Of a stretch of DNA of 64,000 bases, positions 28,601 through 58,205 are shown in pieces. Source of the stretch: Podospora anserina. Lineage: Eukaryota. Position 1 is the first letter of the stretch, and every line of letters starts with the position of its first letter. The stretch spans positions 2,976,001-3,040,000 of the forward strand of contig CM030337.1 in the NCBI GenBank assembly GCA_017654855.1. Direction: 5' to 3'. The notes beneath the pieces are model-generated. The model saw only the letters and a list, made by a program, of their open reading frames with translations. It was not told the origin of the DNA and did no database searches. A program made the translations under genes and the position numbers.

Positions 28601-29034
28601 GTCTTGTCACCGCTACTGGATTTCTGCTGGGTAATGGTCTGGTGGCTGTGAAAGTGGCCCGTAAATGTTCGAGCCAGAGAGGCAAACTGATCATGGCCAG
28701 TAAGGCCGCGGTAGGTGATCGAATTCGTCGCACGGGCGTCTTGCTGGTCGGCATTGACCACATACCGCTGAGTGATGGCTTTGTTGACTGCCAGATGGGC
28801 AAAGGCAACTGTTTCTTTCGCATCCTTAGGGCTGAGGGCAGCGACAGCCTTTGTCAGTTCGCTCTGCTCCTCGCGAAACGGCAACAACAACACGTGTCGA
28901 CCGTCCCATCTGGCGGGTGATGGCACTATGTACCGATAGGTACGGCGCCAGGCGTGTGATGTTGAGGGCATCAAGGGCTGTGGTCTCGTAATCGCGTCGA
29001 TAGGCCAGATCGTGGTTGCCAAGCACGATGTGTA
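25617..29034 (-). pseudogene. 3' part of an SbcD/Mre11-SbcC/Rad50 nuclease-ATPase fusion gene (frameshifted)
   Basis: GNHD, FAHL, FTGHFHSHQ and YLGSPLQLNWAD (metallophosphoesterase motifs III-V). Then ITNFLG, Walker A GDNGSGKST, long coiled coil, signature SSGERKR, Walker B LLVDEVFDNLD, ITHS. Frameshifts near 28920 and 27825. No introns. Confidence 0.88.
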
Positions 29035-29900
29035 ATGTTATGTCGAGGGAAATCTTTTGCCATTCCGGACTCGCTCAGGGGGTGTCGCAATAGCAAGAGG
29101 CACCCCACCCTCTTTGCTGTTCATGTTATTTACAGTTACACGCTGGTCGAAAATGGAAATCAGAAATAAAATCGGCGGCCAAAAGATACTTGGGGCTTCA
29201 GATCATGCAAATCGCGTCACGGGCTGAGCCCTGTGGTGGCCTCGGCAACCCGCGGCCGTGGTGGAACTACCGGGTAGCGCGTGGTCATACCGACAACCCC
29301 TAATGAAGCTATTCCCACTTCGCGGGTAGCGCGTGCGCTCCCAAACCCATCTAGGAGCCTCCAGAAGCGAAATCTGTCAAGACCCTTATCAAGCATTCCG
29401 ACTAGTGCGCAAATGAAGCCCGGCCCGATTTTTGGTGAGCGGCCGGTGATGGGGTTATTTGGGTCGTGATCGAGACCTGATGCTGGACCAGGTCTATGGA
29501 TGCTCATATGACGCAGCAATATGGAACCTACTAGGATCGGTGCCAATGTGTCGATACTACATATTACAACCGTCAACGGAGTTCATGGCTTAGCTAGCCC
29601 GCTAGATATGACGTGTGGCTACAACGCGCAAAGCTTGGTAGGGTCAATGGAACGTCGGTTAAGCACAAATCGGGCAACTGACTGGGGACGCATTGTCGAC
29701 TTGCTCCACACTAGAGGTGAATACGAGTGCCCAGTCCACCGATCATCATCGTTATCGCTTTGCACCTAGGTATTTGCACCGGTAGTTAAATGCTGCGGTT
29801 CTTCCTGCTTTATTTCTCTAGTAGTTTCACTTTCACTTGGACTGAACAACTTTCAAACCCCATATTCAATTCACGGCACTCCAGCCCGGTAATTGCCAAA

Positions 29901-30394
29901 ATGAAGCTCTCACTTCTTGCACTGGCCAGTGCTGCCTCCGCGGCCGTCATCACCACGCGCGATGTTGTTTTCGAAGCCCGCAACTTCACCGCCAGCTGCG
30001 TCCCTCACAGCGCCATGTGCTTGTAAGCATTCCGCCCCCCTCCCTATCCAACACGTTAATATTAACACGAGACAGCTACTCTCTAAATGCCTTCATGCCT
30101 GGAACCATGGACACCCTAGGCTATGACTGCACCGCCTCCGGTGTGGGCGGCCCGGGAATCCTCCCCGAGATTCAAGGCGGCACCTGCCCTCCCTCATCGC
30201 GTACTTTCGACGTCGTCCGAAACGAGACCGGCATGACCGTCATCGTCAGCGTTCAAGTATCTCTTCTTAGCTACACCAGGGGCGCGCATTTCATTCCCAA
30301 CGAGCAGATCCAGGTCATGAAGGGCGTTACTCCGACTGGGGATTACACGGCCTATGTTGGACCCAAGGACTTTCCGCTGGAGAGGATATGGTAG
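29901..30394 (+). CDS. Small secreted protein, Alt a 1/Hrip1 elicitor-like
   Basis: MKLSLLALASAASAA signal; FEARNFTASCVPHSAMC|YSL; C-terminal YVGPKDF. Intron ~30023-30075. Confidence 0.75.
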
Positions 30395-30633
30395 TAGTGC
30401 AGGGATGATGGACGTTCAATGCGGGGCATAGGCTTGCAGGATGTTCGTGTTCACTCATTTCTCGGAACGCATCAGAGGTTTTCTAAACCGCACTGCGGTT
30501 ATGTCTATTCCAATTCTAGCAGCATTAAGCCTCATAGCTACACCAAGTCAAAAGCATTACCCAACGCCATGCTGTTCCCCAACACCGTCCAATGCAAAGC
30601 CCCAACTCCTAGCTAAAGCACCAACAGCACCAC

Positions 30634-31041
30634 TTAAGCCTGCGTGGTAGCGCAATCACCACCTCCCAACCCACCACTGCAGAGACGGGTGCAGCCGATG
30701 CCGAGATCAGCGGTCTTGATGCACTCGTCGTTCTTGACGCGGGTGATGAGATCGCCCTTGCAGTTGGGACCCTCGCTGTCCTGGTAGGCGAACCAGACAT
30801 CGGAGAAGGAGTCGGTCCTGATGGACTTGATGTCGGAGGGGATGGGGGCATCACCGGTGGAGAAACCGTTGAAGACCTTCTTGTCGACTTCAGTACCGCT
30901 GTGAGAGATTTGTTAGGGGGGTTTCACCTGGTGATGGGGGTTAGGAACTTACCAGTTCTCATCGCTGAACATCTTGGTGGCAGCGCCGAAAGCAGTGCTG
31001 GCGCAGCCGGCAATGAGGAGGATGGTGGTGGCGGCACGCAT
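30634..31041 (-). CDS. Small secreted cysteine-rich protein (effector-like)
   Basis: MRAATTILLIAGCASTAFG signal. Intron ~30899-30952 (gtaagt..ctaac..cag) joins to GTEVDKKVF...NCKG..ECIK..GCTRLCSGGLGGGDCATTQA*. Six Cys in the mature part. Absent from the ORF track. Confidence 0.8.
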
Positions 31042-31875
31042 TTTGGATGGTTGATTAGAAGAGTTGGTAAAAGTGGTTTGTTGATGTGTTGTGAGTTTGC
31101 TGTGTTGTGTTGTGATTGTGTTGCTGTTGTTGTTGTTCTGATCTTCCGACTTTACGAAGAGGAACGGATCATTTTATGTCTTCCTGACGATAGTACAGTC
31201 CCATGTTCAGATCTGTGTTATCTTCATTCGGAACGGTTGACCGATTACAAGCCGTAGTATCTGGCTATAGCCATGGCTCTCCCAGGTCTCTGGACAGCTT
31301 CTGGGAGGCTAAGTGTTTCTCGGTTTCCTCAGGTCATGACCTGTGAACCCTGTGGCTGTAGCGCATTGTGCAGTTAAGAATCAGCAATGAAAGCGTCAAA
31401 ACAACCTCGAACTTGCATCATCTGTTCCGTCGGCCGTATAGGTCCAGGCTTGCCTGCTCGGCTAACCTGTCTGGTGCCAGCGGTAGACCTGAGGCCTGTA
31501 ACAGGTATGAGAGGATGCCTCTGGCGGCCATGATGATGTTTCACAGCCTATATTTGGAATTGTCCAATGCCAGACGATCTCGGACTTGATATCTCGCACT
31601 CAGAGTCGTCTGAAGCCATGAAGCAACCTGATTTGCCGCGGCCCGCAACGAATCCGACGACGCGGCCGAATTCGCGGCCGCCCATGCGGCCTTTGTCGAT
31701 CGTATATTGTAAATCGATTGAGAACATTATCAGCAACTCCTAGTGTTATCAGATGGGGATCGTTGAATGGTAGCCACCTAGTCAAACTCTCGACAAACCC
31801 CGTCTTCGACACCCAGATGTGTGGCCCGTGCGCACCCTCCCTTGCCAAGCCCCTGAGCTCTTGAGCTCTTGGGCT

Positions 31876-32242
31876 CAAGGCACCCATCAACGCAATTCAA
31901 TTCAATCCGGGGCCAAGATTGGATTGAATTGAGCACTGGAATACTTTGATTGAATTGAACTTGAATTGCGTTGAATACGATTGATCACGGTCTTGGCACC
32001 CTGGTAAGGCCCTCCCAGTGCTGCCCAGGACCCTGCCCGAGGGCCTCAGGGTTAGGGCTATATATAGCTTGTGACTAATAGCGTGGACTCACTACTACGG
32101 AAAGTGGATATATTAAGGCGCAGTTAATTCTAATTAACGCAATTCAATCTTTCAAAAATGACCTGTTGACCACTATTTTGGCCGGGTTGAATTGGGTTGA
32201 ATTGTGATTGCATTAACTAGAATTGCGTTGGTCGGCGCCTTG
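31876..32242. mobile_element. Non-autonomous hAT-type MITE (367 bp)
   Basis: TIRs CAAGGCACCCATCAACGCAATT and reverse complement CAAGGCGCCGACCAACGCAATT. Perfect 8-bp TSD CTTGGGCT at 31868-31875 and 32243-32250. Subterminal ttgaa/ttcaa repeats. Confidence 0.88.
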
Positions 32243-32612
32243 CTTGGGCTCGACAAAGTCGACACGGGTACTTAGTGCTCGATAAAAGTAATGATGGGTG
32301 GGATCGAAGTCGAATACGTTTTGACTCTTTCGCTAAACTTCTATGCCAGGAATTCCACCGGGGTTTCCAGTTCTATCAAGTACGTGGAATCCCCTTCCGC
32401 CACCATGAGCTTCGCTCGTACTATGTATATGTAGTACAGTGGTATCACCAGAGTGCTGGCACAGTTGCAGGCACCAGTCAGATCTGTTCTGAGATTGAGA
32501 CAGGCACACAGCTTGCGTTTCCGGTGTCGATGATGTGGACTTCTCAGGCTGCCTAAGATTCCCAAACCCCGCACGACTTCTCGTTCATTCTGTCAACGCC
32601 GTCGTCGACACA

Positions 32613-35310
32613 ATGGCTACCCCAGACGGGGACTTTGACGGCAATGGCTTTGCCAACAATCTCTTCACTGATCTGGCACCACTTCTTACATTGTTTGGAG
32701 AGCAAGTCACCAAGCAATTTCTCTCCATGAGTATTGGTTGGGCCGACAGCGTGATCCTGGCTATGGGTCCACTTGGTATTTTAACCATCATTGTCGGCGC
32801 TATCCAGGTCGCTGGTGATCAAGTACCGATTTTGCACGCGTTAATTGGAAGGTTGTATACCTAACCCGCCTGGCCGCCAAATGAGTTTCCGTGTCTTTTC
32901 TTTTAGTGGTTTGATAGGAGCGTTGCTAATTGCCGAGGTCTGATAGAGCTAGAGAAGACAGGGCCAGTGCCGAGGTAGAGCTCCTGTCGTCGACGTCCAC
33001 CGAAGTGTGCGAACTCTGGACGGGCAGTCGCATTGTGCGCATCCGTGGTCAACCTAAAATGTCCCTAACCTTTTTGAGGACAGACACAGGCGAAATATTT
33101 CCTATCACCAGTGAAGAGGACGACGAGATGTTCCAGAACCCGGATGATATTGGCTTTTATTCGCCACCTCTAGAGCCACCGCCGAATCTCAGCCTCAACG
33201 TCAGTAGTCCCCCTGTTTCACGAATACAGATCTAGAAGTGGGCTGCTGTGGGAACTGCACTCCAGACAGCATCTGTGGTTCTCAGCGGTCTCGCTACATA
33301 CAAATGGAATTGGTCACAGGATACGAATCGCTCCTCAGATTATGGCTATCCGTGTTACTTGGCAGGGACCATGATGTTGACTGTCGGGGTCGTGTTGTGT
33401 GGACATCTGGTGGACTCAGTCAGCGAAGAACAAAGCTGGCTTTGTCCACCAGAAATGCGACGAAACGTCCGCATCTTTCGACTGCAGTTCGAGGCTACTG
33501 TAAATGATCAGCATTTTGGGACTTATGCCATATTCAATCCCGAGGATAATCCTGACCTCCGTTCACCGTCCTACACAGGAACAAACGACTCAGCCAAGTA
33601 AGACTCAAGAGACTTTAAAACCCGGGCAGTTCTTGGCACGTCAGGACTGATGATATCGAGTTAGGGCCTTATTGATTATAGGGGTCTCTCTGGTCACCGT
33701 GGGCTTTGTGGTTCAGTTTGTGGGTCTAAGGGGGTTGCATTGGTCGGCCGCAATCATCCAACTTGCCGTAACATTACTTATGACTACTGTCAGAGCATAT
33801 ATCAGAAAAGACGTTGCCAAGGGACTTTCCTCCATTCACTTCGAACGGTTAGATGACTGCTGGACTTTCTTGATCTTAGGTGTCACCAGTCAGAGCGAGT
33901 CTGATGAACTCAATGACAGCCAGGTGCAACAGCTGTATGGTGAGCAATGGGGTGTAATTGCCGGCCTTGTCAACAAGGAGGATAGAAACTCTCAAACTCC
34001 ATCCTACCTCGTCAACCCTCGATACTATGGCCCCCTTCTCCGCAGTATAAATAATCCGCTCAGAGATAACAACACAATTTCGCCGGTTGCATATCAGCTT
34101 TCCAGCACTATTTTTAGGGCGGTCAAATACGATAATACAACGAGCCGCGGCACGATTGTTGATTTCCTATTAAATCTTTGGATGGGAGCTCCAGCCTTGC
34201 GAGCACCTGATACTCAACACAGGACATTTGCTGAAGGTTTGACAAAGGCTTTTTGGCTAATTATCGACTTGCTAAACATCGGGAGTCAACTGCCATTGAG
34301 CAATGTTAGATGGAAGTCAAAGTCCCCCTTGCACAACTTCTTGTTTGGTGCTCAAATTCAACTGTGGTGGATGTTTGACTGTCAATTGAACAGTCGCCCT
34401 CCCGTATCTAATGAAGATCACCAGTGCCACCCATCAAGGATTATATTTCCTTGGCGAAGGAGGCGAGGTTGGTACGGAGAGAGCGTAGGTATCGGAGATG
34501 TGTTTGAAGCCCTCTTGGTAGTTTCCACCTACGTCAGATGGGACATCCATCGTACGACAACAGACAAGCGCGTTATAAGCAGCTCTACAAGATACAGAAC
34601 TGCTAGAAACGCCAGTAGCCTGCCCGATTGGCTTGATCAGGCAACGTTTCAGGCATATCCAAACACCGACATAAACTGTACATCTGATGGCTACGCCAGG
34701 GAACCATCATGTTGGGGAATGTTTTTATCATCGTATGCGAGGTAAGCGCAACTGGCTGTTTGCAAAAGTATATGGTTTCGTACATCTGACTTTCATTACG
34801 ATATACAGCGATATTTCACAGTTACAAGACGACGACCTTCCAGAGGAAAGATCGGAAATTGAACGACGGCCGCTCCCCGGTATTCCCGCTGATGAGGTCA
34901 TGACCCTGGTCAAGATCCGGCGCGATTCTTTAGTGCATGCGTATGCTATGGAGCTGTTCTCCCTCTTCATCCTTGCCCTAGCGGGTCATATCAGGGAAGT
35001 CAAAGGGACAACAACCAGACTGATGCTCCATGGACAAACCACAGCAAGCAATCAAAATGGTGGAAACGGCCGGAGTGAGCCAGGGAAAGCCAATACGACA
35101 ACACCCAGACGGTTCGAGAATTCGTTATTTGAAGCATTAGCCAAAATCGCTGTGGACACCGGAATTTGCCCGACTCAAGAAGACGCCAGGCTGCTTGTCA
35201 TTCCCGCGTTTGCTTGGTATGGATTGCTTCCCGAGCCTGAAGACCCTTCCGCGATGAAGACCGATGGACAGTCAGTGGAAGATTTGCCGAACCCGCGGAC
35301 CGACGTATAG
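32613..35310 (+). pseudogene. Membrane protein of the family usually N-terminal to fungal ankyrin repeats; contains an in-frame stop
   Basis: FANNLFTDLAPLLTLFGEQVTKQFLS..GPLGILTIIV..IGR|ARE..AEVELLSSTSTEVCELW, and GFVVQFVGLRGLHWS. TAG at 33233-33235 (IQI*KWAAVG). Confidence 0.7.
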
Positions 35311-35650
35311 GAACAGGACAGCTGTGAGGGGGAAAGGGGATCGACCATGCGGTCGAATATGGAGCTCAACATGGAACCTATCCGGCAGGAAGGCCCGAAG
35401 CAGAATATTGGTGCGGCAGATCAAGTTGAAGAGGGCGACTCAGGGCAGAGGTCGGATGAAACCTCACCTACGTGAGTGAACCGGTCCGCCCTACGCAACA
35501 TACGAAAAATCGGAGCTAGAGGGGTTGGACATGAGTTGGATTTCGTCAGACTGTTGAGACCGGGCAAAGTAAACCACGAACTAAGATATGCCTAGCTATG
35601 AGTGCCTACTCCCAGGCTCGTTCAAACATGTTACCTACAACACTCGTGAC

Positions 35651-37968
35651 TTAAACATCCTCCAACTCCCAACTCTGCCAATCTTTCCACCACCACTTAC
35701 TCCCCTCGTCGACCCGCGGCCAGAGGTACCTAAAATGCAACGGCAATCCACCCTTCTCCTCGACCTTCAGCGGTTCGTTCTCCAAATATTCCTGCAAGAT
35801 TCTTTGCCGTCTTGACATCCCCCCCCTGATCTCCTTCACCTTCACAATGCCAGAACCATCACCGCTGCGTCCACCACCACCAAGACACCTGTCAACAACC
35901 CACTGCTTCTGAAGTGCGTGCATCAATGACGCCATCTCATCGTCTTCCCGGCCTACCGGATCCTCCCGGTAAGGCCAAGAATCATCACTGAAATGGCGCT
36001 GCTCTTTGACCTTACGGACAGTACGCACACTCAAATTGCAACCCCTAGTGCGCACTATCATTCTTTGCAGTTTTGGAGAGGAAGCCGCCACGCCATCAAA
36101 GATCTGCCTTGCCAACTTTCCATCAATCGCCGAGTTGACCATCACGTCCAGAATGTTTTGGTTGAAGGTGAAGCCTGGGTCTCCCTGCTTCAAGACCACC
36201 GAATCTTCAGACCATTCCCAGCGATGCTGATTCATCGTTCGCATGGTCGGAAGCAACTCCAGTAGATTAAAGTCGTGCCTCAAAATCGCGTCCTCTGTTG
36301 ATTGCACCTTTGACTGCTCCTTCTGCTTCTTGCGTGGTTCGATAAAGACTACGCTGTGGTAAACTTCATTGTCGCCATCAAACACTTGGAGTCCCACGTC
36401 GAGCGTGAGGGACAGTCGTTCGAGATTATGGAACTCAGTCCCGATGGCCTTGTACAATGGGACCTCGTGCCTGTCGCCTTTGGAGCGCCTGACTGGGATA
36501 GACAGCTTCTGGACGGATGGAAAGATAGCCCCGAGCGCGGCTAGTTCCTCTATGATTTCAATGGATCCCCCGAGGACATATAGACCTTCCTCGCCCTCCA
36601 GGCTAGGCTCAACATAGTCCTCATCCCATTCGACAAAGCGGAGGCTGTTGACAGTGTTGAGAGGGCAGGTCCCAGTTTAAAGGTTTGTTAGGGAAGTAGG
36701 ACGAAACAAGCATCCCGCAATGGTCAAATTCTCCAACTTAGCGAACAGTGTCGGGAAGTCTCCTAGACCTTCTAAAGACTCGCGCACAACAAGCCCGCCG
36801 ATAGCAAGTGTCGTTAAATAGGAGAATAGCCCCTTGCTCTTCACACAGCTGAATTCAGCCAGTGTAGTGTCGCGTGTCAGGGTCAAACTCTTCAGAGCGC
36901 CGAGGTCTAGAGGTAGCTTCATACTCATGACGTCAGGAATGAAGCAGTGGTCTAGCTCAAGGTGGTCGATGACTGGTGGCTTTGTCGTTGGCTTTCCGTT
37001 GTATAGTTGCTGTGGCAAAGGAGAGTTCGGGTCAGAATTCCAGTCTGGGGCACCGGGACAGGAGCGAATAAGGGGGGCGCGAAGGCGAATCTCTCTGATG
37101 TTGTGGGTGAATGTGAAATTCCTCAGCATTAGACAAAGCACTTCGTACTGGCGGCTGTGTGCCTCTCTCAATGCATTGGGATTCCCCAAAGAATTCACTT
37201 CAACTGTATCGTTGAGCTAACTGAGTGAAGGCATGGCGAGGTAATCAGAGCGTACTCGTGAGAGTCCAGTATCCTAGGGTTCCTGTCCAGCATCCGTAGC
37301 TTGAACGTGTGTAAATGGAGACGAACCGTGTGACTCTTTTCGTGAAGGGCTCGTAGCAAGCAAGGTGCAAACTGCATTGGGCATTGGTAAACCAAATCAC
37401 CGAGTCCTGATAGCTTAGAGATCAAATCAGCCAAAGGGTTGCCACGCCCAGTCTGCGTCGTAAATCACTCTCGCGAGATCTGTGCCGTAGTAATTCCATA
37501 GTTCTTCATCAGTGCCAGCGATCTCACCGCCAAAATCTGAATAATCCGGGATTCCGTGAAGCCTTGTATCATTCACCTCCCAATCCGCGGAGGAAAGGGC
37601 GATGGGTGCCAGGGACAATAGTCATCTTGTCTGTCGCCAGTGCTTTCTCCAGAGCTCAGTCGTTGAAAAAAGCCCTGATCTCTGCCCCCCAAGAAACTGT
37701 CAACAGGTCCGACAATGGCCACAGAGCGGACATGACGAAAAGCATCCCTGGCCTGAAGAAGACGGGTGCACTTCTTCACATGATTTGCCAACTCGCGCTG
37801 CGAGGTAACCTTGAATCTGAGGTGCCGAAACAGAACTGATTGCGCAGCTTGGTAGCAGTACTCACTACACAAGACAAATGAGAATACGGCTGATGGGTCG
37901 TCTTCGTGAAACATGTCGCAGACCTGAAACAACACCTCGCGAGGCAATGTGGAGAGCAAGGGGGACAT
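35651..37968 (-). pseudogene. F-box-like/LRR-like family, paralogue 1 (frameshifted)
   Basis: MSPLLSTLPREVLFQVC..RLHGIPDYSDF..CPMQFAPCLL..SPCL..RRSKGDRHEV.LY..NSAIDGKLARQIF..WKDWQSWEL. Split across five ORFs by frameshifts and stops. Confidence 0.8.
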
Positions 37969-38543
37969 CTCAGCTTGCGCGAGCGCTCACCAAGACATGT
38001 AAACGTGCTGGGGAACGGATTAGATTGCGAAATTTGAGCCGGTTGAGTTTTCCCAACAGAAAGGCTGAAGAAACTAAGTTGAACCGGTTCCCTCCATCAC
38101 CTGCGGTCCAAAAGTCGTTGAGCTGTTCTCGGGTCGGTCGCGATGTCGTCGAAAGTGGAGCTTGGGCACCGACGCACGGACAATGCATAAAATAATACAA
38201 TGCACAAATGCACAAATATTGAACTGTCAACAAAATTAGCGTGCTTCGAATTTCCGAGTTGTTGATCAAGTCGCGACAAAGACAATCAAGGTCAATTGTT
38301 TTGCAGTCAATCGGATTCATTCATAAAATTGGCACCAATTCCAAGATTCAGGTTAGTGGGTATCATCTCATGGGTAATTCGGGAGGGGGCGACAACAGTG
38401 GTTTATCTGATACCCCTTGTGGGCAAATTCAGCCCTCTACCAACCCCAAATATCTAACTAGAAGCAGCTATAAGTAATATTAGCATGAATACCACTCACC
38501 AATAAATATTCGAGCCTAATCTTTAGTTGCACTGCAAGAAAGC

Positions 38544-40889: not shown

Positions 40890-41042
40890 GGATGGCAAAA
40901 GGCGTAGGTGATTGTACCTAACAGATGAAGTCCGGGGACAACCAGAGCGGGGTGGTAGGTTACTTTATACGAGATAGGCATCAGCGGGGCGGACCCCTAA
41001 TTGCAAGCGCCTGGAGGCGCGGCAAGCGCGCGAGGAAGCGCT

Positions 41043-42308: not shown

Positions 42309-42675
42309 CTTTGCGAGGTTTGACGTCGCTTGAGTAGGTAGGTAGACGACACGTTGAGATAAAGCTGGGGAGCACCGATACTTGATATTTGTAGGTAGCT
42401 AGTCAATCAGATAGGGAAGGTGTCCCAGCTGCATTCCGCTGGTCAGGTGGCATCCAACGGAATGCTCAAGGTGTGCCCCCGTCCAAAGTTCCATCCGCCG
42501 AACCCTGCAGAAGGTGGTGTCAGAATAGTCAAGGGTCGCCCATCCTGAAAACGTAGTACTCAATAAAGAGACGCCAGTAGCGCCCGACACTTGTCCCGTC
42601 ATGTCTGCAAAATTGAAGTTTACTCTTAGTCTGGCCATTCATTTTGAATTTGATGGTACAAATAGAAGGAAAGCC

Positions 42676-44781: not shown

Positions 44782-47700
44782 ATGCGCATACCGTCTCTCA
44801 TGTTGCCATTGGCACTGACGGTGCTTGCCAAAGCAGTTTTTGCTCATTTCATGGTGAGTATCGCTTGGCCCAATGCCGTTCATGATCTGGAACTGACGCA
44901 TCACCATCAAGGTCTCCAATGCCGACAACTACACCGTACAGGACTGGGAATACGACATCCAGCTGGCTAAAGATGCCCACATCGACGCCTTTGCCTTGAA
45001 CATGGCGTACAACGAAGGCACAGACTCCGTGTCCATTGCGAGGGCATTTGATGCAGCAGAGAACAAGGACTTCAAACTCTTCTTTTGATTTGACTACGCC
45101 GGAAGGGTTCCTTGGCCTCGAGTGGCGGTCATGAGTACCCTTCAGGCCTACAAAGAATGGTCAGCCCACTACCGCTACAACGGTCAGCCATTTGCCTCAA
45201 CATTCGAAGGTCCTGAACGGGCTAAAGACTGGATTGATATCAAGGAGGTGACCGGGTGCTTCTTTGTCCCCGACTGGTCCTCTGTGGGCGCCAAAGCAGC
45301 CATGTCGCTCGCCGGAGGCGTAGCTGACGGCCTTTTCAGCTGGGCTGCTTGGCCTTGGGGTCCCCAAAACATGGACACGTATGTGGATGCCTCCTATTTG
45401 CAGTACCTCAACGGCAAGCCCTATATGATGCCCGTTTCGCCTTGGTTTTATACCAATCTCCCCCAGTGGAAGAAGAACTGGATGTGGCGCGGAGACAATC
45501 TCTGGTTTGACCGATGGCAAGAGGTTATGTATGTCCAGCCAGAATGGGTACAAATCATCAGTTGGAATGACTACGGTAAGTCGCTCTCATTGTCAGGCAG
45601 AACCTGGCCAGTAACCCTGGTTGAAGACGGTAGAAAGGGGCTAACACGACTTTCGACAGGTGAATCGCATTATATTGCACCAATTCGCAAGAACGCGCTG
45701 GCCGCCATGAGAAGCGTTCCTTTTGACTATGTGAGCAACATGCCCCACGATGGATGGCGGGCATTTCTGCCACATGTCAGCGACATGTATAGGTACAACA
45801 TCACGTTATTCGACAAGGAGGGGGTTACATTTTGGTACCGGCCTCATCCTCGGGCGGCATGTGGTATGTTCTGATTCATCTACGTCCGATTCTGTATACA
45901 CATTCATGACGACCTTTTGCTAACACCCGCGATAGGGAGTGGAGGAACCACTGGAAACACCGCGTCGCAACTGGAGCTTGAATTCCCTGCCGCTGAGGTG
46001 GCCGCGGACGCTGTTTTCTACACGGCACAGCTGGCCTCCAAAGGCGCAACTGTCACCGTCAGCATCGGAGGTGTGTCGAGTGTTGAAACTTAAAGCGACA
46101 TACCAGACGGCGAATCTGATCTTTACCACGGAAACGCCAGTTTCAACGGCCGCACTGGTCCCGTTCAAATCACGCTTTCCGGGAAGGTAAGACACTTGCC
46201 AGCGGTTCGGGCACGCCTATCTCGTCCTCTTGCAGCCAGCCTCGTCAATTGGAACGCTTGGGTTGGCAACGCCATGTCGTCCGAGACCACCATCGCCATC
46301 CCCTGGCTGCAGAAGGATAAGGTCTGTATCCGCGGAACAGGTGCCAATGACTTTGCGGAGCTGTGCGCATTCTCCTGTTCTTACGGCTACTGTCCCATCG
46401 GGGCATGTGTGTGCCTCGCCATGGGTACTGAAAGAAAAAAAACCCCTATACGGGCGTCGTCGCATTCCCGGTCGCCGGTAGGAGTGCCGACTACGCAGGT
46501 CTCTGTTCATTCAATTGCAATCTAGGCAAGATTGGAGACAAGGGTTGCCCATCAAACATTTGTGGTACTTCAGAAGCGCCACTGGCCATCCCGACTGTGT
46601 CTCCTTTTCTACCATTTACTTGCACGGGGGGTCGAGGATCAGCAGGCTGGGAGGGTCTCTGTTCCTACGCGTGCAACTTTGGCTTCTGTCCTACCAATAT
46701 CTGTACCTGTACCCAGACTGGCGCCCTGAACGTGCCTTCCCCCAAGATCAGGGACACAGTAGGCAGTTCCCTACACCCCAACGTCAACGACTGGAGTCTC
46801 TGTGACTTTGCCTGTCCCAGGGGCTACTGTCCCGAAGGGTCATGCAACCAAAGGCCAGCGTCAGGAGGGGGACCGGCAGCACCGATTGCACCCGACATCT
46901 AGACCAACCCAGATCCCACCCCCTTGGTTGGTTGCTCGCCTCCTTGCAACCTAATACTGCCACCATACACGCTCCGCACGCCCACCACCATCACTTGCCA
47001 GCCGCTCACCACCACTTTCGTGGGCAGGTGGGCCTCCAATTCGGCGCCCGTCACGATGGTCACCACCATCACCTTCCCAGCCATCACTACGACAAGAATT
47101 CCTGTTTTCAACATCAACATCACTCAGGCCGCCGTGGACAAAGTCGTGTTCACTGTCACGCCCTCGATATTCTGCATTGAGCCCATCACAGTTGGTCCAC
47201 CGCCAGGGATAACAGTGCCAACCTGGAGCTCGTCCTTGATTACCTACTCAATTACATCGACCCCGACGCCATCAACAATTCCCTGGCCGCCCATAACTAC
47301 CACCCACAAGACCAAAGTTAGCTTCACAAGCACCAGCTCGGTGATGCCAACATGCCAAAGCGGCTGCGGCGATGAGTGTACACGCAACTGCAATGACTGT
47401 GGCGTTGGCGAATGTTCCTGCATGGATTGTTGCAAGAATTGCGGTCGTGACAATCATGACGGTGGTGGTAGCATCGGTGGCGGCGAACTTGGATGCATCG
47501 GTTGGAAATGTGCCCCCAATAGCGTACCTCCGCCCGGGCCGCCGCCTCCGCGGGAGGCAACGGCGGCGGCGAAGGCGGAGGCGGTGACGACAACCCGTCT
47601 TGCACCTCCCGAAGCGCCGTTGTCCATACAACAGTCCACTGCAGACTCTATTCGACCTCCACCAAGCTCACCATGGAGACCGCCTGCACATCCACCGAAT

Positions 47701-48493
47701 CCTCTACTACCTCTGGCTGCATGAAGCCCGCAAGAATGACAACATACACATCTTCCAACTGCCCCCGAAGGGCAGCTTATACGCCGCCGTGGTCTGATTA
47801 CACAGGGGCGCTGCCGACTCCCGGTGGGCCTGGATGGAATGTGTACACGTGGGTTACGGGGAAGACCTCGACCAAACCGACGGCTCCTACCCCTACCTCC
47901 AACCCAAATACCAAGCCCCTGACGAGAGGTCCAATCAACTGCTTCAAGGAAAGTGACTTTCCAGGCCACGCAGATCTTCAGCCCGGTGATCAGGATCGGT
48001 TCTCGGTTGACTTTAGTAGTCTACGGAACGGGATGGGTGACGATGACACCATCGGGCCCGGGGATGCCCCGATTACGCTTCGCAAAACGGGATAGCAAAG
48101 GGGTGAACTATGACTTTCGTGTTGAGTGGGTGGCCGGGTGTGTTACTACTGTGAAGAGGCAGAGCTTTGGTTTCCCGCTGGGGATGTCGCAGAGTTTGAT
48201 CACTGCTTATTTGTTGGTGAGAGAGAATTATACCAAGTGTGAGTGAATAATCATCTTTGCATTGCTGAGTCTCAATACACTAACAATTGTGGTTCTTGTG
48301 CTCAGGTAACAACGGTGGTGCGGGCGGTACATGTCAAGCAGGGTGTCTGTTGTATACCTTTGCGGGTGCAAGAGGTGGATCGCCAGGTTTCCGACTGGCA
48401 GCCGAGCCGTTAGCAAGTGTGGCTGGCAATCAGAGCCACTACGTGGTAGGAGAGAATGGCGGGATTGTGATTGATGATCCGAATAAATCTTGA
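44782..48493 (+). pseudogene. GH71 alpha-1,3-glucanase (mutanase) multidomain gene, pseudogenised
   Basis: Signal peptide, KAVFAHFM|VSN..HIDAFALN, STFEG, PDWSS, ISWNDYG|ESHY. Cys repeats LCxFxCxYGYCP, linker CSPPCNLILPP..PTTI, C-terminal CNNGGAGG..QAGCLLYTF. Stops at ~45086, ~46092 and ~46900 plus frameshifts. Confidence 0.88.
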
Positions 48494-49299
48494 TCGGGAT
48501 GGGCTCAATGCTAAATGAGGAGGACACGTTTGTTTGGAAAAGCGCTTTCTTCATGCCAGTGTAGATGAGTCACGCCAGGAAAGTTTGGTTGATTTGTTGT
48601 ATTGGTAACTTCATAGACCTGTAAAGTATAACTTATCTGTCCACTGCTCTTAACCTTGCTGTAGCGGCGATCCATCCAGGGTACTCCCATGCCGGGCCTG
48701 CGACAGACGCCTTTGACACAACGCAGCACTTAAAGAGATGTTGACAGTGACCACGGCTGCAGCTATAAACGATAGGCGATGGTGTGCGACATATATCTAT
48801 TAATGAGGGCAGCTCTATATACTATGGGAATCGAGAAGAATATGATCTTGCCACAGTACCTACCTTAGTACACTCAACCAGAGTCGACGCTGGCGCGATA
48901 TATCTGTTGATTTGCCACCAAGACAAGGTTGACGTCAATGGAGCATCCAACTCTCTTTTCCAGTGCCAGCTGGAAGCTGAGTGCTTGTGGGAAGTGTTGC
49001 TCAGCAGTGGGCAGTCAGGTTGCTCCGAGGGCACAGTTTGTGGGATAGATAGGTTCTCTTTTGCTCTGTTGGAGTTTTCCTGGTTCTGATCAATATCATC
49101 ACGTTTCTCAGTTCTGTTATGAGTCCGACTACTGCGCTGGTTCTGCTCCACCTTCGAGGGGCTGCTGTCAGCAGCATCGTCTTATCAGGCTCTCTCCACT
49201 GCCCAAACGCCAAAGTTCAGGGTGGAGCAACTTAAGATGTGAATTGAAGGCACTTTGACTTTGGTGAAACAAACTCACCTTGACCAGGCAGCAGAATGT

Positions 49300-50600
49300 G
49301 TCGAATCTCACCGTGTATCTACTTTAAGGCCGCCAGAATGAATGCGACTTGACCGGCGTCTTCTTGACTATCCGCCCTAACTGTCGTCCACTGTACTCGA
49401 AAGCCGCATGTCGTGGAAATTTTTATCCCTTCAAATACGTTTGCCCCGTAACGACATGTACAATATGCAGCTGGACACCGACTTGACTGTTGGTAACGAC
49501 ATGTCGTTCAGCCTTCAAGTTCCTCGCTATTACAGCACTCAGAGCTTTTCTCACGAAAGCCGCCTCTTCTGGAATTACCAGAATTGGCCCTCGTGGTCCC
49601 AGCAACAGTTGGGTAGATACCTTTCACACAACGTTAATTACGACCACAGCTACGCCGATCAACGGTTCCCAGCCAGTCGTGTGCACCGACTGATAAACGA
49701 CACACATCTGGACGAGAGAACGGTGGCAAAGCAGTCGAGGATGGGAAAAGGAATCGGATCGTTCCAAATAGGCACCAATCACATTCACGGCTGCACCGTT
49801 ATTACCATCATCAGCAACAGAGCTGTTTGGATGGCTCATTTTTGGGAGGCGGACTTGGGGGAAGAGGACTGGGAGATTTTATTCCAAAACATGCCCTTCT
49901 TCATTGAAGAGTTTCGGCAAGTATTTTTCTTCGTTCCATTTACCACCTCTTTGTTCCCCTGTTTCTCATATCGCCGGCCGCTCAACGACACTCCAGGTGT
50001 GGGCATCGAACGCCGCTAACTCTCTGCGTTAGACACAAAATTCTCTGGCCCATCACTGGCGGTGGTCCAGTCGGCCCCGACGTCGAGGTTCTCGACCCCA
50101 ACCTCTTCAACAGGCCTGACGACCAAACCCGGGTCTTCATTTACACCCCAATAAACCTGCGCTGGAATCCCGATACGAAGCCAACTCGAAACGACTTGCA
50201 GTTCAAGTACAGAATTGAAGAAGTTACGAACGCAATCCTGACAAGGATTCCAGGCGCCCAGGCAACGATTTGCGGCTACATCTTCTTGGTGTATGAAATG
50301 ACGTACAATTACTAACCCACACTGTTTCCCACAGGGGAGGTGAGACATGAGTTCCAAGCCCACGGTCCAGACGCAGCCATGGCTGGAGAAACTGCCCGGG
50401 GATCCATCATGTTTCAGTAAGTCCAAACTATATCTACCCAGATCCTCCCCTTGGGCCTTCGAGAGAGCTAACAATTCGACTTTTCCTCCTACGCAGATAT
50501 GATGGCACACATACTGGGCGAAATTGGCGTTTATTCATCGAGCACCGGATGTATAGAAAGGGAGATTCTCAGGGACTCAACCACTACGAGTGTGAGATGG
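49300..50600 (+). pseudogene. Cys-His (CNF1/CheD-like motif) domain gene remnant, copy B
   Basis: FQIGTNHIHGCTVITIISNRAVWMAHFWE; TRVFIYTP; ARGSIMFQ|YDG..WRLFIE. In-frame TAA near 50315. 5' part fragmented. Confidence 0.65.
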
Positions 50601-50930
50601 CAGCCATCAATGGAGGTGCGCTCTGGATACCGGTTGAGGATGTCAACTCAAATCGAAGAAGCATGCCAAAGTTCCAGGGGCCAGACCTCAGCATACCTGC
50701 TTCTTCGGTCCCACAACCAGGTACCTGAACCTCATGCCGCTTCTATTCATACCGGCAACCTCCTCGGGGCAATCTCACCGGTCCCATCGCTGGCTTTTGA
50801 GATACGGCTCTGGCACAATTCTGCACAGAAAAAGAAATTGCCGACAACAATCGCGCACCCACACACAGTGACGATCGCAGGCTATCTTCAGTCAGGACTT
50901 CGTCATACATTACCCCCTGGAATCAAAATC

Positions 50931-51643
50931 TCAACTCACGATCGTTGTAAACTCCGCCAGGGAAGCATCAAAAACCGACGTCAACAAATGTATCGTGTAC
51001 CCAACCAAGAATAAAACCCAAGAATAGCTCATGAGCATAGTCGGGCACTGCCAAAACCAGACCATCCTGCGACTGATCCCCCGATGGAACATCTTATCCC
51101 CTGGCCCTGGCGGGGCAGGAGGTTGCAGGAATAAACAGAGGCATATCGCCAGGTCGGCATCGCTGAGCTCGTCACTCGAGTTCTCGGGAAGACGACGAAG
51201 AAGCCGTTGGTGCGCCGAGCTGATCAGTGCAAAGAAGGAGAGGAATAAACTCCAGTTCCAGAGCATCTTGGCCACCCAGATTGTTCTTTCTGTCGAGGGC
51301 CAGGAGAAGACGCCTATGACTGCTGCTCCGGAGAGCGTTGCCTAGGGAGACCATGTCAGCGCCGTACGATTCCATGGCTTTTGGGTGTGAGGCACTGACT
51401 GCTCCTTGTACAAATCTCAACTCCTCTGATTTAGTCTTACGGAAACGAACCAGTGCTGCGATGACTCCATCCTTGTGCTCGCGAAGGGTTTTGGTTGCGC
51501 TGGATGCAATGCATTGGCTGGACGGTGTGATAGCGCAAAACTCCGGAATAGCTGAAGGCAAAGATCCGGAAGAAGATGCTTCTGGGGACTGCGTTACAGT
51601 TATCTGGTGGACCTGAGTCCCGGGTGTTAGGTGATCTATCCAT
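50931..51643 (-). pseudogene. Small multi-pass membrane protein, probable frameshift
   Basis: KSEELRFVQGA|ATLSGAAVIGVFSW..WQCPTMLMSYSWVLFLVG. The frame changes near 51490. The 3' end is uncertain (gtgagt donor at ~50938). Confidence 0.5.
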
Positions 51644-52322
51644 GTTGATACAACTAGAGTCTAGTGTAAAAAGTAGCTTCAAAAGGCCAATGATGGGAAA
51701 TTGTGCTGTGCTGGTGCCTTTTTGATAACTGGCAAGGCTTTAGTATACTATTATCGATTTCGGGCTTGTATGTTACCACTCCCCGATACGTTTCGGATTT
51801 AGCTACATGTATCTTGACTCCGAGATAGAATGACCTTGAGCCGCTTGGGGGCCGGTGGCGGATATCTACACGCCGTAAAGCACGCGCGTACACTGTAACA
51901 GCAGGGCTGTCTCGACGTATAAGGAGCCAAAGGGCATCGCCACCACTTGAGCCTCGCCCTCACCTGCACGTTGTGATTGGCAATCCTGAATTCTGCCAAG
52001 TCCTAGGAAGGAATTACATCCGCGATCAACATTATCTGGTGGATGCGTAGCTGTACTACCTATGAATCATATCCAGTCATCAGATCGGGCCACACGTCTG
52101 GGCACTTACTAGGGTTGGCCTGTTCGGTTTCAAGATATGGGCATGATGTCGTCTCGCATCCTGAAAAAGTCCCAAAGCAGCGCAGCCTTGTCTCTGCGAA
52201 GAGCATAAAAACAATCCACAATCTCGGGGGTTTCCTGACAGTCAATCCACCATACCATCACCACCACTACCCATCGACACAGTTGCAAACCATTGAACTA
52301 GCGATATCCGCCCTACATCACC

Positions 52323-53181
52323 ATGACAGAGGAACAGCGAGATGTCTATCTTTACAGGCGGCCCATTACTAGCCTTGCCAAAGTCCCCGTGCTCAACAAA
52401 TGGGCCTATGCCTCCATCAACCACTGGGCAGTCTGCGTTGGCGAAACATGCTACGAGGTTGCCCGCATCCACGACCACCATCCAACGGGGAAATCTCACG
52501 ACATACGCGTCCTTACCAAGGCAGAATGGATTCAGTATGCCCAACAACAAAAGCTTGCCTACCAATATGCGAATTACGGGAAATGCAATGCCAAATGGAA
52601 GGATGACGACATCAAGGAATGCGGTAAGTACAGATCCACCTACCTACCTATAGCCTTTTGCCATGACTTGTGCATGCTCAGGCTGCTGACCAATTTCCCT
52701 CACCTTCATAGCGGACGACATATGGGAACGAATCTTCGACGGAACCTATGAAAACTTCGAATCGAACTGCCAAGAATTCGCCCATTTGCTTATGCGGTGC
52801 ATTGTCGACGATCTGCGTGAAGACACAATCCCAAGACGGTGGCAGGAATACAATCCGGATGGTCTCGTACCGGCAACACTGATGGGGGGAGGGCCTGGTA
52901 TCACAATAGGCGCAATGGGCGCGGCCAATGGGACGGCAGTGGCTGCGACAACAGGTGCAAGTGTAATAACCATGACGGATCTCGTTGCCACGTTGGGCAT
53001 CCTGACGGGAATCTCGGGAGTGGTTGCCTTTTGGTCATATATATACAAGAAGCACAAACGATACAAAAAGAGCACGGCGGTGGTGAGGGAGTGGCACTCT
53101 GCAACGAAGACCACAACCAGGAAAGGATGGCGTCGGGTCTTTTCCAGGAGCTCGTGGCGTCGCATGTGGGATGAACTCTGA
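52323..53181 (+). CDS. PPPDE/LRAT-like permuted papain-fold protein with a C-terminal TM helix
   Basis: NHWAVCVGETCYEV, then after intron ~52624-52711 YENFESNCQEFA (His...NC order). Hydrophobic LGILTGISGVVAFWSYIY followed by a basic tail. Confidence 0.72.
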
Positions 53182-53555
53182 TTAGCGGTAACTTTTGCTG
53201 GAAAGTAACTATCTCCCTCCTCATTGTATGTCTAGGTAGAGAGCTCAACAATCAAGTCTCATAACCACATCGTTCAGCAACTTTAAAGGTGTGCAAAAGG
53301 ATTGGAAAGTTATGAACGATCGAAGGCGGTCCCTGGAGCTATCTGGTAAAGTTTGGCCAAGGTGGGTTACTGCTGTTTTAGGTTAAGGTTCACGCACAAA
53401 GCTAAGTTTTCTCGTTGAACTCCCTGATCCCAACACTTCTTTTCGCTGTCAGGCACTATTTCACTGCTCGCCATTTGATGTTTCCTGCACCGGTACGGCT
53501 ACATCCCGAAAAACATCTCTCCGACTCGACAGTCACGAACTCTTTACCCTTCAGC

Positions 53556-55776
53556 ATGGCCCTGAAAAAGCTCCCCCTGGAGTTGCAGACACGTATTTGG
53601 GAACTGTTGGAGGATCATCGTGATAGTCTGGTATCGCTCTCCTTGGCGAACCGGCATTTTCGGGCGGTTGCCAATACGTGCCTGCTGAACCGTTTGACCT
53701 TCAATGCCACAACTGATGGTCTTGAGGAATTGGTCGAAGGTTGCTCCCGGTTCCTCCGCCAGAATGACGGCTTCCGTCACGTCCGAATTCTCGTTGTCCT
53801 TGGCTCAACCGTCGAGAGCGAGAACCTCACCGCCAATGGATCACAAAGGGTATATTTTGGGCGAGGCCCCTTTGATGAAGTCAAGCAAGACAGATTCTAT
53901 AGGTTTCCTTATTACTGGCTGACGTTGAACAACCCACCGACGCCGCCCGCCCGGCATGGCATACCGCCTCATGCCTGGCAGAGTGCTGACCGGTGGGACA
54001 AGAATTGGCAGCCATTGGCCAACTTCATCAGCTTGTTACCAGGACTCACTGACCTCATATACAAAGCGATGGAGTAGTTTCCACCATGCCTGTTGCGCGC
54101 CATCGAAAGCAAGAGCACGATATCACGCCGTGTGACACGGCTTCACCATTGCACTTTTCGGCTGCGGATGCTGGAAGCTGCCGCGGCAGCCGAGCATCGT
54201 TCACGTGGCCTGCGCACTACCTATTCTTACGAAGATGTCCCAACTCCCACAGTACCCGTTGCCGATCCTCACGAATTGAATATCATCCGATCTCCCTGTC
54301 TCTATAGCCTGTGTTTGGCTAACGACAAATCCAAGATCGGCCCCGGGCCAAATGGGGGGTATAGCAGGGTTAATGGCATGTACCCGGAGATAATGAAACA
54401 AATTTTGCAGACCGAAGGACTTGCCCCGAATCTAGGCGAGATCATCTTGTATCCACACATCTATTCGGCGGTAATGGCATCACCCAGAAGTGGAGTTAAG
54501 CTGGCAAGGACACTCGGCAATGCTTTTCGACGTCCGCATCCTCTGGCTATAAAATGGCTCACGTTTCTGGATCTCACCGACTCCATCCCAGCTCAAATCT
54601 GTCAACTACTGGATCTCAGAGCTTTGGAGACTCTCAAACTTACCTGGCCTCAGGGTGAACAGGGGGTGGTATTCTCCGAAACCGTACGTTTCCCTTCCCT
54701 GACCACGCTCTTGGTGGACTTGTCTTTATGCATAGGAACTGCATTCCCAAGAGGGAGTGCTCAGGTCAAACACTTCATCAGCGCTCATCCACAGCTCAAG
54801 CATTTACATGTTGGCAGATGGGATTGGTCATTCGCGTCGTTTGTAGGAGAGGACCACCATGGAATGAATGGTGTTTCCAAAAATGGAGACCTTGTGCTTT
54901 CAAAACGAGCGACGTCCTGATTTGTGTCACGTCTGGAGCTCACTGAGTTCCGCCCGTGAAATCGAAGGCCTGGGTGCCCTGTACCCCAACGTCAAGCGCC
55001 TGGCCCTTCCTGTGCACGGGTCAAGGGGCAACAGAGCCGAAGTTGCGTTGTATCAAACCATTGGGCACAGCTTCCCCAAGCTTCGGCATCTTTCGCTCCA
55101 CCTGGATGCGTCATCGAGGCCGGTGCACATGATTGTTCCGCCGCAGTTAATCCCACTTGCAAAAGTCCCAGAATTCCAGTGTTGTAGTGCACGTGGGTGC
55201 TCGGAAGGGGAAGCCATTCGCCCTTTTGAGGAACGAGCCCCTCACGATGCGCTTGGAATGGCCTATAGGGGACTGACGAACGGAGATATCATGGATTTCA
55301 TGGTGAACTGCGCGCTTGATAGCAAACTCGCTAAGCAGATCTTTTTGGCAGTGTCATCTGCGTCACTGGAAACCATGGTTGTGCGGAGTGGGGGGCTGAT
55401 CACTACTTCTAGACACGCGGATGGAATTGTGTCTACTGGGCTCGGAACAGGAAGGGCTCTGGGGTGGGGTTCCATGCAGTTTGGGATGGAACATTACATT
55501 GCGGGTCTGCAGCGCCACTGGGTGGTCGAGAAGTAGTTTTCTGATTGGAAGAAGGAGAAGTTGGGGATCAAAGAGATAAGGATACTGGACGATCGGAAGC
55601 TGCATCTAGATTCGGATTATTGGCATGGAGTTACTGCCGGAGTGGGTGAGGGGGTTGAAAACGCTTTGTTGAGATGCTTCAGGAAGCTGTGGTCTCCAAA
55701 GGAGGGGAGCCGAGGATTGTGGGAAGAGTGGGAGAGTAGGGATTTACGTGGATTCGAGGGAGTAGAGACTACATAG
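53556..55776 (+). pseudogene. F-box-like/LRR-like family, paralogue 4 (stops and frameshift)
   Basis: MALKKLPLELQTRIWELL..SLANRHF..WQPLANFISLLPGL..ME*FPPCLL..SPCL..SRGNRAEVALYQTIG..NCALDSKLAKQIF..WEEWESRDL. TAG at 54075 and 55534; frameshift ~54870. Confidence 0.8.
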
Positions 55777-55813
55777 GAAGCCATCTGTTAAAGCGTCCTA
55801 ACTTGGTATTTAC

Positions 55814-56118
55814 CTACTCAACCTTCACAACCACCTTCCCAAAGTGCGACCCACTCGCCAGATACTTCATCGCCTCAACCGCCTCCTCAAACCCAAACGA
55901 ACGATCCACCACCGGCCTGATGTGATGCTTCTCGTAGAACCGACACATCTCCTCGAACCTATCCCTCGGACCGTTGATAATCTCCTTCAACGTCACCGTC
56001 CGCCGCAGGGCCAAAGATTCAAATTCGGCCTTGCCTCGCCAGCTTCATCCTCCCGCCCAGAGACATACCCAATGCACGAGATCAACCCCCCAAACCCCAT
56101 GCAGTCAAGAGACTTGTA
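55814..56118 (-). pseudogene. C-terminal fragment of a zinc-binding alcohol dehydrogenase/MDR
   Basis: YKSLDCMGFGGLISCIGYVSG..LALRRTVTLKEIINGPRDRFEEM..IRPVVDRSFGFEEAVEAMKYLASGSHFGKVVVKV. One frameshift near 56015. The 5' part is absent, cut at the TGTA junction. Confidence 0.82.
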
Positions 56119-58019: not shown

Positions 58020-58205
58020 GTTGGGTGCTGATTGACTAGTTTGGTCGAAAATAAAAAGTGGTCAAAGAGCGGAATGTAGGAAGCAAAGGGATGAGGGAAG
58101 ACAAGTTTAAAACAACAAGAAATTGATGAGAAAATCGGAGTGTGAATGTGCGGCACAGCACCAAAGTCGTTCCTGCAGGCCACCCTGGCTACCTCTTGGC
58201 AAAGC

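Follow-up and report, generated by a model that had tools for sequence, protein, structure and literature searches.

The Starships, large cargo-laden insertions in Pezizomycotina genomes such as Enterprise in Podospora and Hephaestus in Paecilomyces, carry as the first gene at one end, in the available text of PMC9156397, a captain coding for a DUF3435 tyrosine recombinase; for degraded elements the same text requires at least three matches to DUF3723, ferric reductase (FRE), patatin-like phosphatase (PLP) and NLR. According to the portions of the literature at hand, terminal inverted repeats are frequent in Starships and lacking in Enterprise, and the excerpts on target motifs give RGGTAG for Enterprise (10.1101/2020.03.25.007153) and TTAC(N7)A for Hephaestus (10.1101/2022.08.04.502770). 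Junction homology of few bases is also found in microhomology-guided insertional translocation, or break capture (by end joining or template switching of the microhomology-mediated break-induced replication type), together with an arbitrary breakpoint in a donor gene, no element enzyme and a single event. The locus described here lies in a 64,000-nucleotide stretch of Podospora anserina DNA (contig CM030337.1, forward strand, positions 2,976,001 to 3,040,000; hereafter the window, numbered from its first letter), where a minus-strand gene for a fusion of an SbcD-like nuclease and an SbcC-like ATPase is interrupted by 27,084 bp flanked by the 4-bp repeat TGTA. Like a Starship, it is a large insertion with cargo in a genome of the Pezizomycotina, its short direct repeats represent homology between insert and target, the target is rebuilt exactly and its presence in close species is patchy; nevertheless, the block is probably a captured chromosomal segment. 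Compared with other break captures, a 27-kb insert that cost the target 0 bases and has an identical 4-bp sequence at its two junctions is unusually clean.

The window corresponds to chromosome 6 of P. anserina, gene models Pa_6_7410 to Pa_6_7490, whose products match it at 99-100% (804 of the 805 residues of Pa_6_7450; 100% for the part of Pa_6_7480 derived from an alcohol dehydrogenase, ADH). The interrupted gene shares with the bacterial-type SbcCD and Mre11-Rad50 systems the DxH and GD...GNHD motifs of the metallophosphoesterase, the AAA_23/SMC_N ATPase, a coiled coil and the SbcC Walker B; differently from bacterial-type SbcCD, a single chain of about 1,150 aa here combines nuclease and ATPase, and its distribution across Sordariomycetes is patchy. 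A search with the downstream 735-aa open reading frame (ORF) gave 248 relatives among 8,000 scored candidates, most of which are fusions of about 1,150 aa combining Metallophos with an AAA_23/SMC_N (SbcC/Rad50-like) ATPase. Pfam analysis of the P. pseudocomata protein P0248 and of the window ORF revealed Metallophos and AAA_23/SMC_N in one protein, as in the Sordariomycetes SbcD-SbcC fusions. These fusions are widespread but patchy in the class (Fusarium, Trichoderma, Chaetomium, Triangularia and others), and the closest named relative of the interrupted gene outside the P. anserina species complex has only 62% identity. The pieces of the gene, the block and the two junctions are as follows.

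25617-27824, minus strand: Pfam AAA_23, SMC_N and SbcC_Walker_B, the ATPase part of the interrupted gene.
25620..29034, minus strand: 3' part of the interrupted gene, about aa 82-1175, a pseudogene in three frames (tblastn with P0006 and P0248; Pfam).
27823..27831, minus strand: second frameshift, with a stop after it (tblastn; lacking in the Logan ORF P0339); in the intact allele, NFLGVKNTIHIDF.
28908..28912, minus strand: first frameshift; intact AITRQKWDGRH, in the window AITRQ and then (R)WDGRH, the high-scoring pair passing from frame -1 to -2 at 28910/28911.
29031..29034, no strand: left copy of the 4-bp repeat, TGTA, or TACA on the gene strand (sequence).
29035..56114, no strand: inserted block, 27,084 bp including one repeat copy, with GC and dinucleotide indices as in the flanks and no signature of repeat-induced point mutation (RIP).
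55814..56118, minus strand: C-terminal fragment of a zinc-type ADH, the last 101 codons from Y301, cut at Tyr-Lys (PF13602, tblastn with P0127).
56115..56119, no strand: right TGTA plus C; on the gene strand GTACA, which is both the ADH CTG TAC AAG (Leu-Tyr-Lys) and the target CGA GTA CAC.
56117..56359, minus strand: 5' fragment of the interrupted gene, 81 codons with the DLH and GD metallophosphoesterase motifs (ORF, tblastn).

A sequence-only reading of this DNA had proposed that a phosphoesterase is split into two parts on the same strand, 27 kb apart, that TGTA is present at both junctions and that excision of the block rebuilds the gene to the base; the ORFs, tblastn with the Triangularia setosa protein P0006 and the sequence itself bear out the three points. 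TGTA occupies 29031-29034 and 56115-56118 (TACA on the gene strand). Minus-strand 56359-56117 is translated into 81 residues, MRITS...SDVVPRV, containing the DLH and GD motifs, while the minus strand from 29032 down reads HIVLGNHDLAYRRDY, which corresponds to HIVLGNHD onward. Deletion of one TGTA copy restores ...VVPRVHIVLGNHD, identical to the reading of the relatives; joined through a single TACA, the fragments give CGA GTA CAC ATC, or ...PRVHIV, with the frame kept and 0 bases lost, and the gene strand of the restored target reads CCACGAG-TACA-CATCGTGC. The stretch ...SDVVPRVHIVLGNHD... is read exactly in the full-length proteins of T. setosa (P0006), Fusarium solani (P0007) and P. pseudocomata (P0248), and SDV(V/I)P(R/Q)VHI(V/L)LGNHD is uninterrupted in four relatives from the search with the 735-aa ORF. 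In tblastn, P0006 aa 1-83 match 56359-56111 and aa 81-131 match 29035-28883, the remainder of the protein being spread over three frames in 29035-25635; identity along the whole gene is 62-82% to P0006 and 94-98% to P0248. Besides being split by the block, the interrupted gene is frameshifted twice, close to 28910 and close to 27823-27829, and its roughly 1,150 codons contain no stop. A giant intron spanning the block was rejected as a candidate, since no placement of its boundaries inside the repeat yields GT...AG.

A mis-assembly is refuted for the right junction by bridging contigs, and made very improbable for the left one by the gene order in four annotated genomes. Contigs cross 56118/56119 in all the three contig runs, which come from three studies (X13, 58,238 bp; X7, 6,161 bp, with 0 differences; X9, 10,279 bp). 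In a run search, 18 of the 24 listed runs (5 studies) hold 0.88-1.00 of the words of 51119-61118; none holds about half of them, so that no empty site was seen among the listed runs. From the raw chromatin immunoprecipitation run X20 only 3 reads were placed. In P. anserina S mat+ the genes follow each other as Pa_6_7410, 7440, 7450, 7460, 7480 and 7490 with consecutive accession numbers, Pa_6_7410 starting 63 nt from the left junction, and matching accession series are found in P. comata, P. pseudoanserina and P. pseudopauciseta.

Some of the annotated models at the junctions are themselves composite. Pa_6_7480 (P0125, 148 aa; 55814-56359, minus strand) is a chimera of 76 N-terminal residues of the nuclease and 72 C-terminal residues of the ADH, linked by a predicted intron over the right junction, and similar models are present in three sister species; the chimera may be either an annotation artefact or a genuine fusion transcript. 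The Pa_6_7410 model (P0334, 1,421 aa; 24427-28971, minus strand) fuses the remainder of the pseudogene with a CE1 esterase.

An empty site with the contiguous gene, which the sequence-only reading had suggested looking for in relatives, was found in P. pseudocomata. Its gene QC762_0098430 (P0248) is contiguous and intact, with 0 frameshifts, and reads SDVVPRVHIVLGNHD, AITRQKWDGRH and NFLGVKNTIHIDF; the annotated product is a merged 1,573-aa model, comprising the Pa_6_7490 orthologue and the intact nuclease/ATPase gene, with 94-98% identity to the four pieces in the window, and its Pfam Metallophos match crosses the junction point. No intron placement in the repeat gives GT...AG, therefore the P0248 model does not represent a splice over a hidden block. 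Conversely, in each of P. anserina S mat+, P. pseudoanserina, P. pseudopauciseta and P. comata the Pa_6_7480 model consists of the 5' fragment joined to ADH-derived sequence, thus these four species carry the right junction. The window and these four are the five carriers, and the derived I and F in LLISRTMQPTHVF are common to all five sequences, while T and L are kept in P. pseudocomata and in four outgroup genera.

Further lesions differ among the carriers: in two carrier species the D of the catalytic DLH motif is changed to A, further substitutions occur in P. comata and in S mat+, and P. pseudopauciseta has a different C-terminal frameshift. The Logan ORF P0339 reads GVKDTIHIDF straight through the position of the second frameshift and breaks later, at ...KGLEVWLGRW. 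The second frameshift, being missing from P0339, therefore postdates the insertion; it is not universal, thus the secondary lesions are strain- or lineage-specific. As far as can be read from these sequences, the pattern points to one old insertion followed by independent decay in each lineage, and within the complex at least four species have a dead SbcCD-type fusion gene, while one has a living copy. In the published tree, P. pseudocomata falls within a clade that also contains P. pseudoanserina and P. pseudopauciseta, and lineage sorting or introgression is described as extensive (available text of PMC10936905); the distribution of the insertion conflicts with that species tree, ancestral polymorphism being its simplest account. 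A recent clean excision in P. pseudocomata was considered and rejected, its allele being without the two substitutions common to all carriers.

The right end of the block had been read from the sequence as lying in the middle of an ADH gene cut exactly at TACA, and tblastn with the intact 401-aa ADH P0127 agrees: only aa 301-394 are matched, the first base falling exactly at 56118, and the 5' part of the gene is found nowhere in the 64-kb window. The fragment, matched by PF13602 (ADH_zinc_N_2) with E = 2.9e-15, contains one frameshift near 56014-56032; intact zinc-type ADH/enoyl reductases have about 360-400 aa. The ADHs of four genera, Podospora (Pa_5_120 cluster), Cercophora, Neurospora and Triangularia, read ...ETGGAGTLYKSLDC..., with GTLYKSLDC conserved. 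Moreover, a diverged contig found in all the three genomes (X13, 16.5 kb; X7, 16.6 kb; in X9 a 4,051-bp record and a loose end at 56119 only) aligns with 55815-56119, showing 29 differences and 1 gap over the 305 nt, and beyond 56119 continues for 30 letters whose reverse complement, ILETGGAGTL, is in frame with (L)YKSLDC and represents upstream ADH. Conservation in four genera, together with a paralogue that continues past the end of the block, indicates that the right TACA, with its preceding G, consists of native ADH codons; a purely target-derived TACA would match the four native ADH bases by chance in about 1 case in 256. The apparent 4-bp target-site duplication is thus donor-target homology (GTACA), shown for the right junction by sequence comparison.

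The same diverged contigs and an 8.7-kb contig match the block piecewise from 44.1 kb to the right end, at 75-90% identity, with indels and one inverted F-box-like gene, and extend past the block end. Since homology runs beyond it, the right end is, on the evidence of these alignments, an arbitrary breakpoint in a chromosomal segment and not the terminus of an element. The diverged counterpart, located elsewhere in the same genomes, bears the resident intact ADH (Pa_5_120 type); two stretches of the block are additional with respect to this counterpart, one of 3.4 kb, containing a GH71 gene, and one of 2.4 kb.

The content of the block was analyzed with Pfam on 61 block ORFs of at least 100 aa, on 150 of the 154 shorter ORFs (60-99 aa) and on 34 ORFs of the flanks. 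Accessory genes and no recognizable captain or transposase had been noticed from the letters alone, and this holds on the three ORF sets: neither a mobility domain (DUF3435, transposase, integrase or reverse transcriptase) nor a conserved Starship cargo domain (DUF3723, ferric reductase, patatin or NACHT/NLR) was detected in block or flank ORFs, and the annotated models P0290, P0300 and P0313 contain no DUF3435. Within the block Pfam recognizes just two families, GH71 and ADH_zinc_N_2, in addition to one sub-threshold chance match. A family called F-box-like in the sources, which has no Pfam match, accounts for four or five members of the block, one intact and the rest truncated or frameshifted; other components without a Pfam family are a pair of paralogues at 43.1 and 49.4 kb and a small secreted-type ORF. 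Within the terminal 300 nt there are no terminal inverted repeats, the only shared words being chance 8-mers located over 60 nt away from the ends; no long direct repeats were found at the block ends, and no tRNA, 5S target or Rfam match. GC (0.52) and TpA/ApT (0.65) are equal to those of the flanks. The extra-copy search covered the right 12 kb of the block (44001-56118) in three genomes, where no second copy of at least 95% identity was found. Among other candidates, RIP after duplication was rejected on the basis of these normal indices, and Helitron, long terminal repeat (LTR) and terminal-inverted-repeat transposons were rejected for lack of LTRs, inverted repeats, matching termini or enzyme. 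The genes of the block, and the neighbouring gene that anchors the locus, are listed below.

32221..35310, plus strand: region of Pa_6_7440 (643 aa), no Pfam domain (cluster look-up, Pfam).
35651..37216, minus strand: fragmented F-box-like paralogue with C-terminus ...WWWKDWQSWELEDV (ORF translations).
38544..40889, minus strand: intact 781-aa F-box-like ORF, part of model Pa_6_7450.
41043..42308, minus strand: truncated F-box-like paralogue, 421 aa, merged into Pa_6_7450.
44897..47724, plus strand: GH71 (alpha-1,3-glucanase family) gene Pa_6_7460, 3' limit approximate (Pfam PF03659, cluster look-up).
53478..55776, plus strand: F-box-like pseudogene in at least three reading frames (ORFs).
56895..58019, minus strand: Pa_6_7490, a 398-aa membrane-type protein, outside the finding.

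A conserved tail, ...WWEDWESWDL..., characterizes the F-box-like family (35651-42308 and 53478-55776), and in P. pseudoanserina a piece of the 53478-55776 pseudogene is annotated directly beside 607480. Outside the block, the flanks contain a HET-domain gene (61193-62236, minus strand) and an ankyrin-repeat gene (22793-24262, plus strand), and inverted repeats with GTTGACA/TGTCAAC units are present at 3339-3766, with 43-nt arms, 81% complementary and 330 nt apart. The whole window looks like an accessory-type region.

The origin of the block that is considered probable is a single capture of a 27-kb chromosomal segment by homology-guided break repair, as in the second of the two alternatives left by the sequence-only reading, a segment captured at a staggered break by microhomology; this alternative is favoured by the right TACA, which corresponds to the ADH Tyr-Lys codons, and by the paralogue continuing past the end. 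The event would have occurred in the population ancestral to the P. anserina complex, in the chromosome-6 coding sequence of the SbcD-SbcC type, and the inserted stretch would be ordinary accessory DNA, a diverged counterpart of the DNA next to the resident ADH gene Pa_5_120, encoding nothing apparently able to move it. The join would have been made at the shared GTACA, between the ADH end ...CTG TAC AAG... and the target ...CGA GTA CAC.... As to the repair pathway, which we infer, two forms can be proposed: in the first, a 4-nt staggered break would be produced, one overhang annealing to the TACA of the fragment and the other being filled in; in the second, a replicative template switch would leave the target at TGTA and return at TGTAC. 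The two forms imply different left borders and different fates for the donor.

Several observations weigh against such a capture. The protein searches found no donor locus, and the donor origin of TGTA is established for the right junction only. An exact short repeat with no target loss is also typical of integration by tyrosine recombinases; indeed, in the part of 10.1101/2022.08.04.502770 available, the Hephaestus repeats are element-target homology and excision leaves no footprint. The distribution of the insertion against the species tree and the position of a close homologue of one cargo gene on another chromosome in a sister species would both also suit a mobile element. Finally, the consulted text of PMC10936905 describes in the same complex a chromosome-5 region of 6-40 kb with 4-bp direct repeats, which its authors read as transposable element (TE)-like.

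The segment would come either from an old paralogous region of the same genome, which moved and was lost at its source, or from a relative that has not been sampled. The ADH fragment has about 90% DNA identity to the resident ADH, and its protein differs at 10 of 101 residues from the resident enzyme and at 11 of 101 from the ADH of Cercophora samala; for comparison, C. samala and Podospora are 86% identical and species within the complex differ by less than 2% (PMC10936905, in the text available). The divergence from the resident ADH is close in depth to that between C. samala and Podospora and the interrupted gene has only two frameshifts, therefore the segment is old relative to the insertion. 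No ADH closer than the resident one was present among 236 matches in a collection of 5.8 billion protein clusters, and the same collection contained no closer F-box-like protein except QC761_0076600 of P. bellae-mahoneyi (P0291, intact, 778 aa), which has 93% aa identity to the 781-aa F-box-like ORF of the block (P0003) and lies on a contig with the Pa_5_120 orthologue, that is on chromosome 5 and not 6; the next relative of P0003, at 49%, is in C. samala. Metagenome contigs scanned for an exact 26-nt match to the left end of the block gave none.

That the segment was foreign, coming from an unsampled Sordariales relative about 10-15% diverged through hybridization or horizontal transfer and then end-joined, is rather unlikely; this possibility concerns the origin only and is compatible with the break-repair mechanism. 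It would account for the 75-90% identity between block and resident paralogue, similar to the 86% between C. samala and Podospora given in the accessible text of PMC10936905, though the insertion is young; in addition, the ADH fragment, inspected by eye, has none of the three substitutions specific to the resident Podospora ADH, and none of the species of the complex has a second intact ADH among its annotated genes. However, the composition of the block is that of the flanks, the nearest relative of P0003, at 93%, is found within the complex and the next reaches 49% in C. samala, and neither the 5.8 billion protein clusters nor the 26-nt metagenome scan provided a candidate donor.

A further explanation, unlikely on balance, is that a cargo without captain was moved in trans by a tyrosine recombinase of Starship type: a captain located elsewhere would recombine two pseudo-sites with a TACA core, one in the ADH and one at the left border of the donor, and the excised circle would integrate at the TACA of the nuclease gene, with one core copy at each junction. 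The exact 4-bp repeat with 0 target bases lost, the 27-kb size and the accessory cargo, the patchy distribution among species and the 93% homologue of one cargo gene on P. bellae-mahoneyi chromosome 5 fit this explanation; Starship repeats are homology and a captain acts in trans on a mini-element, according to the available portion of 10.1101/2022.08.04.502770, and a second large 4-bp-flanked insertion is reported in the complex in the accessible part of PMC10936905. Conversely, the block is without captain, DUF3723, ferric reductase, patatin-like, NLR and inverted repeats; its right terminus is plain ADH coding sequence, where the paralogue homology continues and no dedicated recognition sequence is visible, the target is unlike TTAC(N7)A or RGGTAG, the right 12 kb are single-copy in three genomes, and P. 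pseudocomata does not have the two substitutions of the carriers, indicating that its empty site is ancestral and not the result of a recent clean excision. In more general terms, Starship-type recombinases may, as a long shot, move arbitrary segments in trans through chance pseudo-sites with a 4-5-bp core, here TACA, in a manner similar to specialized transduction; if this were true, captain-less 4-bp-flanked blocks would be its products, including this block and the published chromosome-5 insertion.

Very unlikely is a once-autonomous Starship that inserted here and whose captain and conserved genes were later removed by internal deletions, the other alternative of the sequence-only reading, which fails on every testable feature except the flanking repeat. 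Flanking repeat, size and accessory content would fit, and degraded Starships without DUF3435 are described in the available text of PMC9156397; however, no conserved Starship gene is present, against the at least three that this text requires, both original junctions are intact and yet one end is a truncated host-type gene, and there are no repeat-rich or RIP-mutated relics, GC (0.52) and TpA/ApT (0.65) being as in the flanks. Differently from Starships, the block has no captain at either end, no DUF3723, FRE, PLP or NLR genes and no inverted repeats, one end lies in the middle of an ADH, and it is single-copy where tested. Thus, among the features that define Starships, the short direct repeat is present, as TGTA at both ends, and captain, terminal inverted repeats, conserved cargo, target motif, an element-specific right end and extra copies of the right 12 kb are not. 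The left end had also been likened to a TTAC-type Starship target, and this does not hold, since GAG-TACA-CAT contains GTAC and not TTAC and fits neither TTAC(N7)A nor RGGTAG. Since the Hephaestus repeats are also element-target homology, the repeat alone cannot separate capture from Starship.

It is scarcely credible that the structure is an assembly artefact or that the fragments are separate paralogues: an artefact is already refuted for the right junction, bridged in all the three independent contig sets, and the four annotated genomes agree in gene order; the two fragments meet without a base missing or added, a contiguous orthologue at 94-98% identity exists, and no observation in favour of an artefact was found.

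No paper naming Pa_6_7410, 7440, 7450, 7460, 7480 or 7490 was found, and the main text of PMC10936905 mentions no chromosome-6 insertion, though its supplements may list one. The nearest precedent, in the text of that paper available, is the chromosome-5 region with 4-bp repeats: it belongs to the same complex and shares the order of size, the 4-bp repeat and the conflict with the species tree, but it concerns another chromosome and another set of species, and contains transposable elements, being TE-mediated according to its authors. Large insertions by break repair are already known as a kind, and the block is probably a new and very clean case of it.

The finding also brings a caution, since a short flanking repeat and accessory cargo are insufficient for a Starship call, and the insertion accounts for three merged or chimeric public gene models. 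Podospora is genetically tractable, thus the model of a recombinase acting in trans is directly testable in this organism. For the species complex, the insertion represents a shared-derived structural marker at odds with the species tree, which suggests lineage sorting or introgression in this region. More in general, the locus is a natural record of tens of kb of gene-bearing DNA entering a fungal gene without a transposase, and its value lies in base-exact junctions, in the surviving ancestral allele and in a donor origin that, at one junction, is legible from a codon pair.

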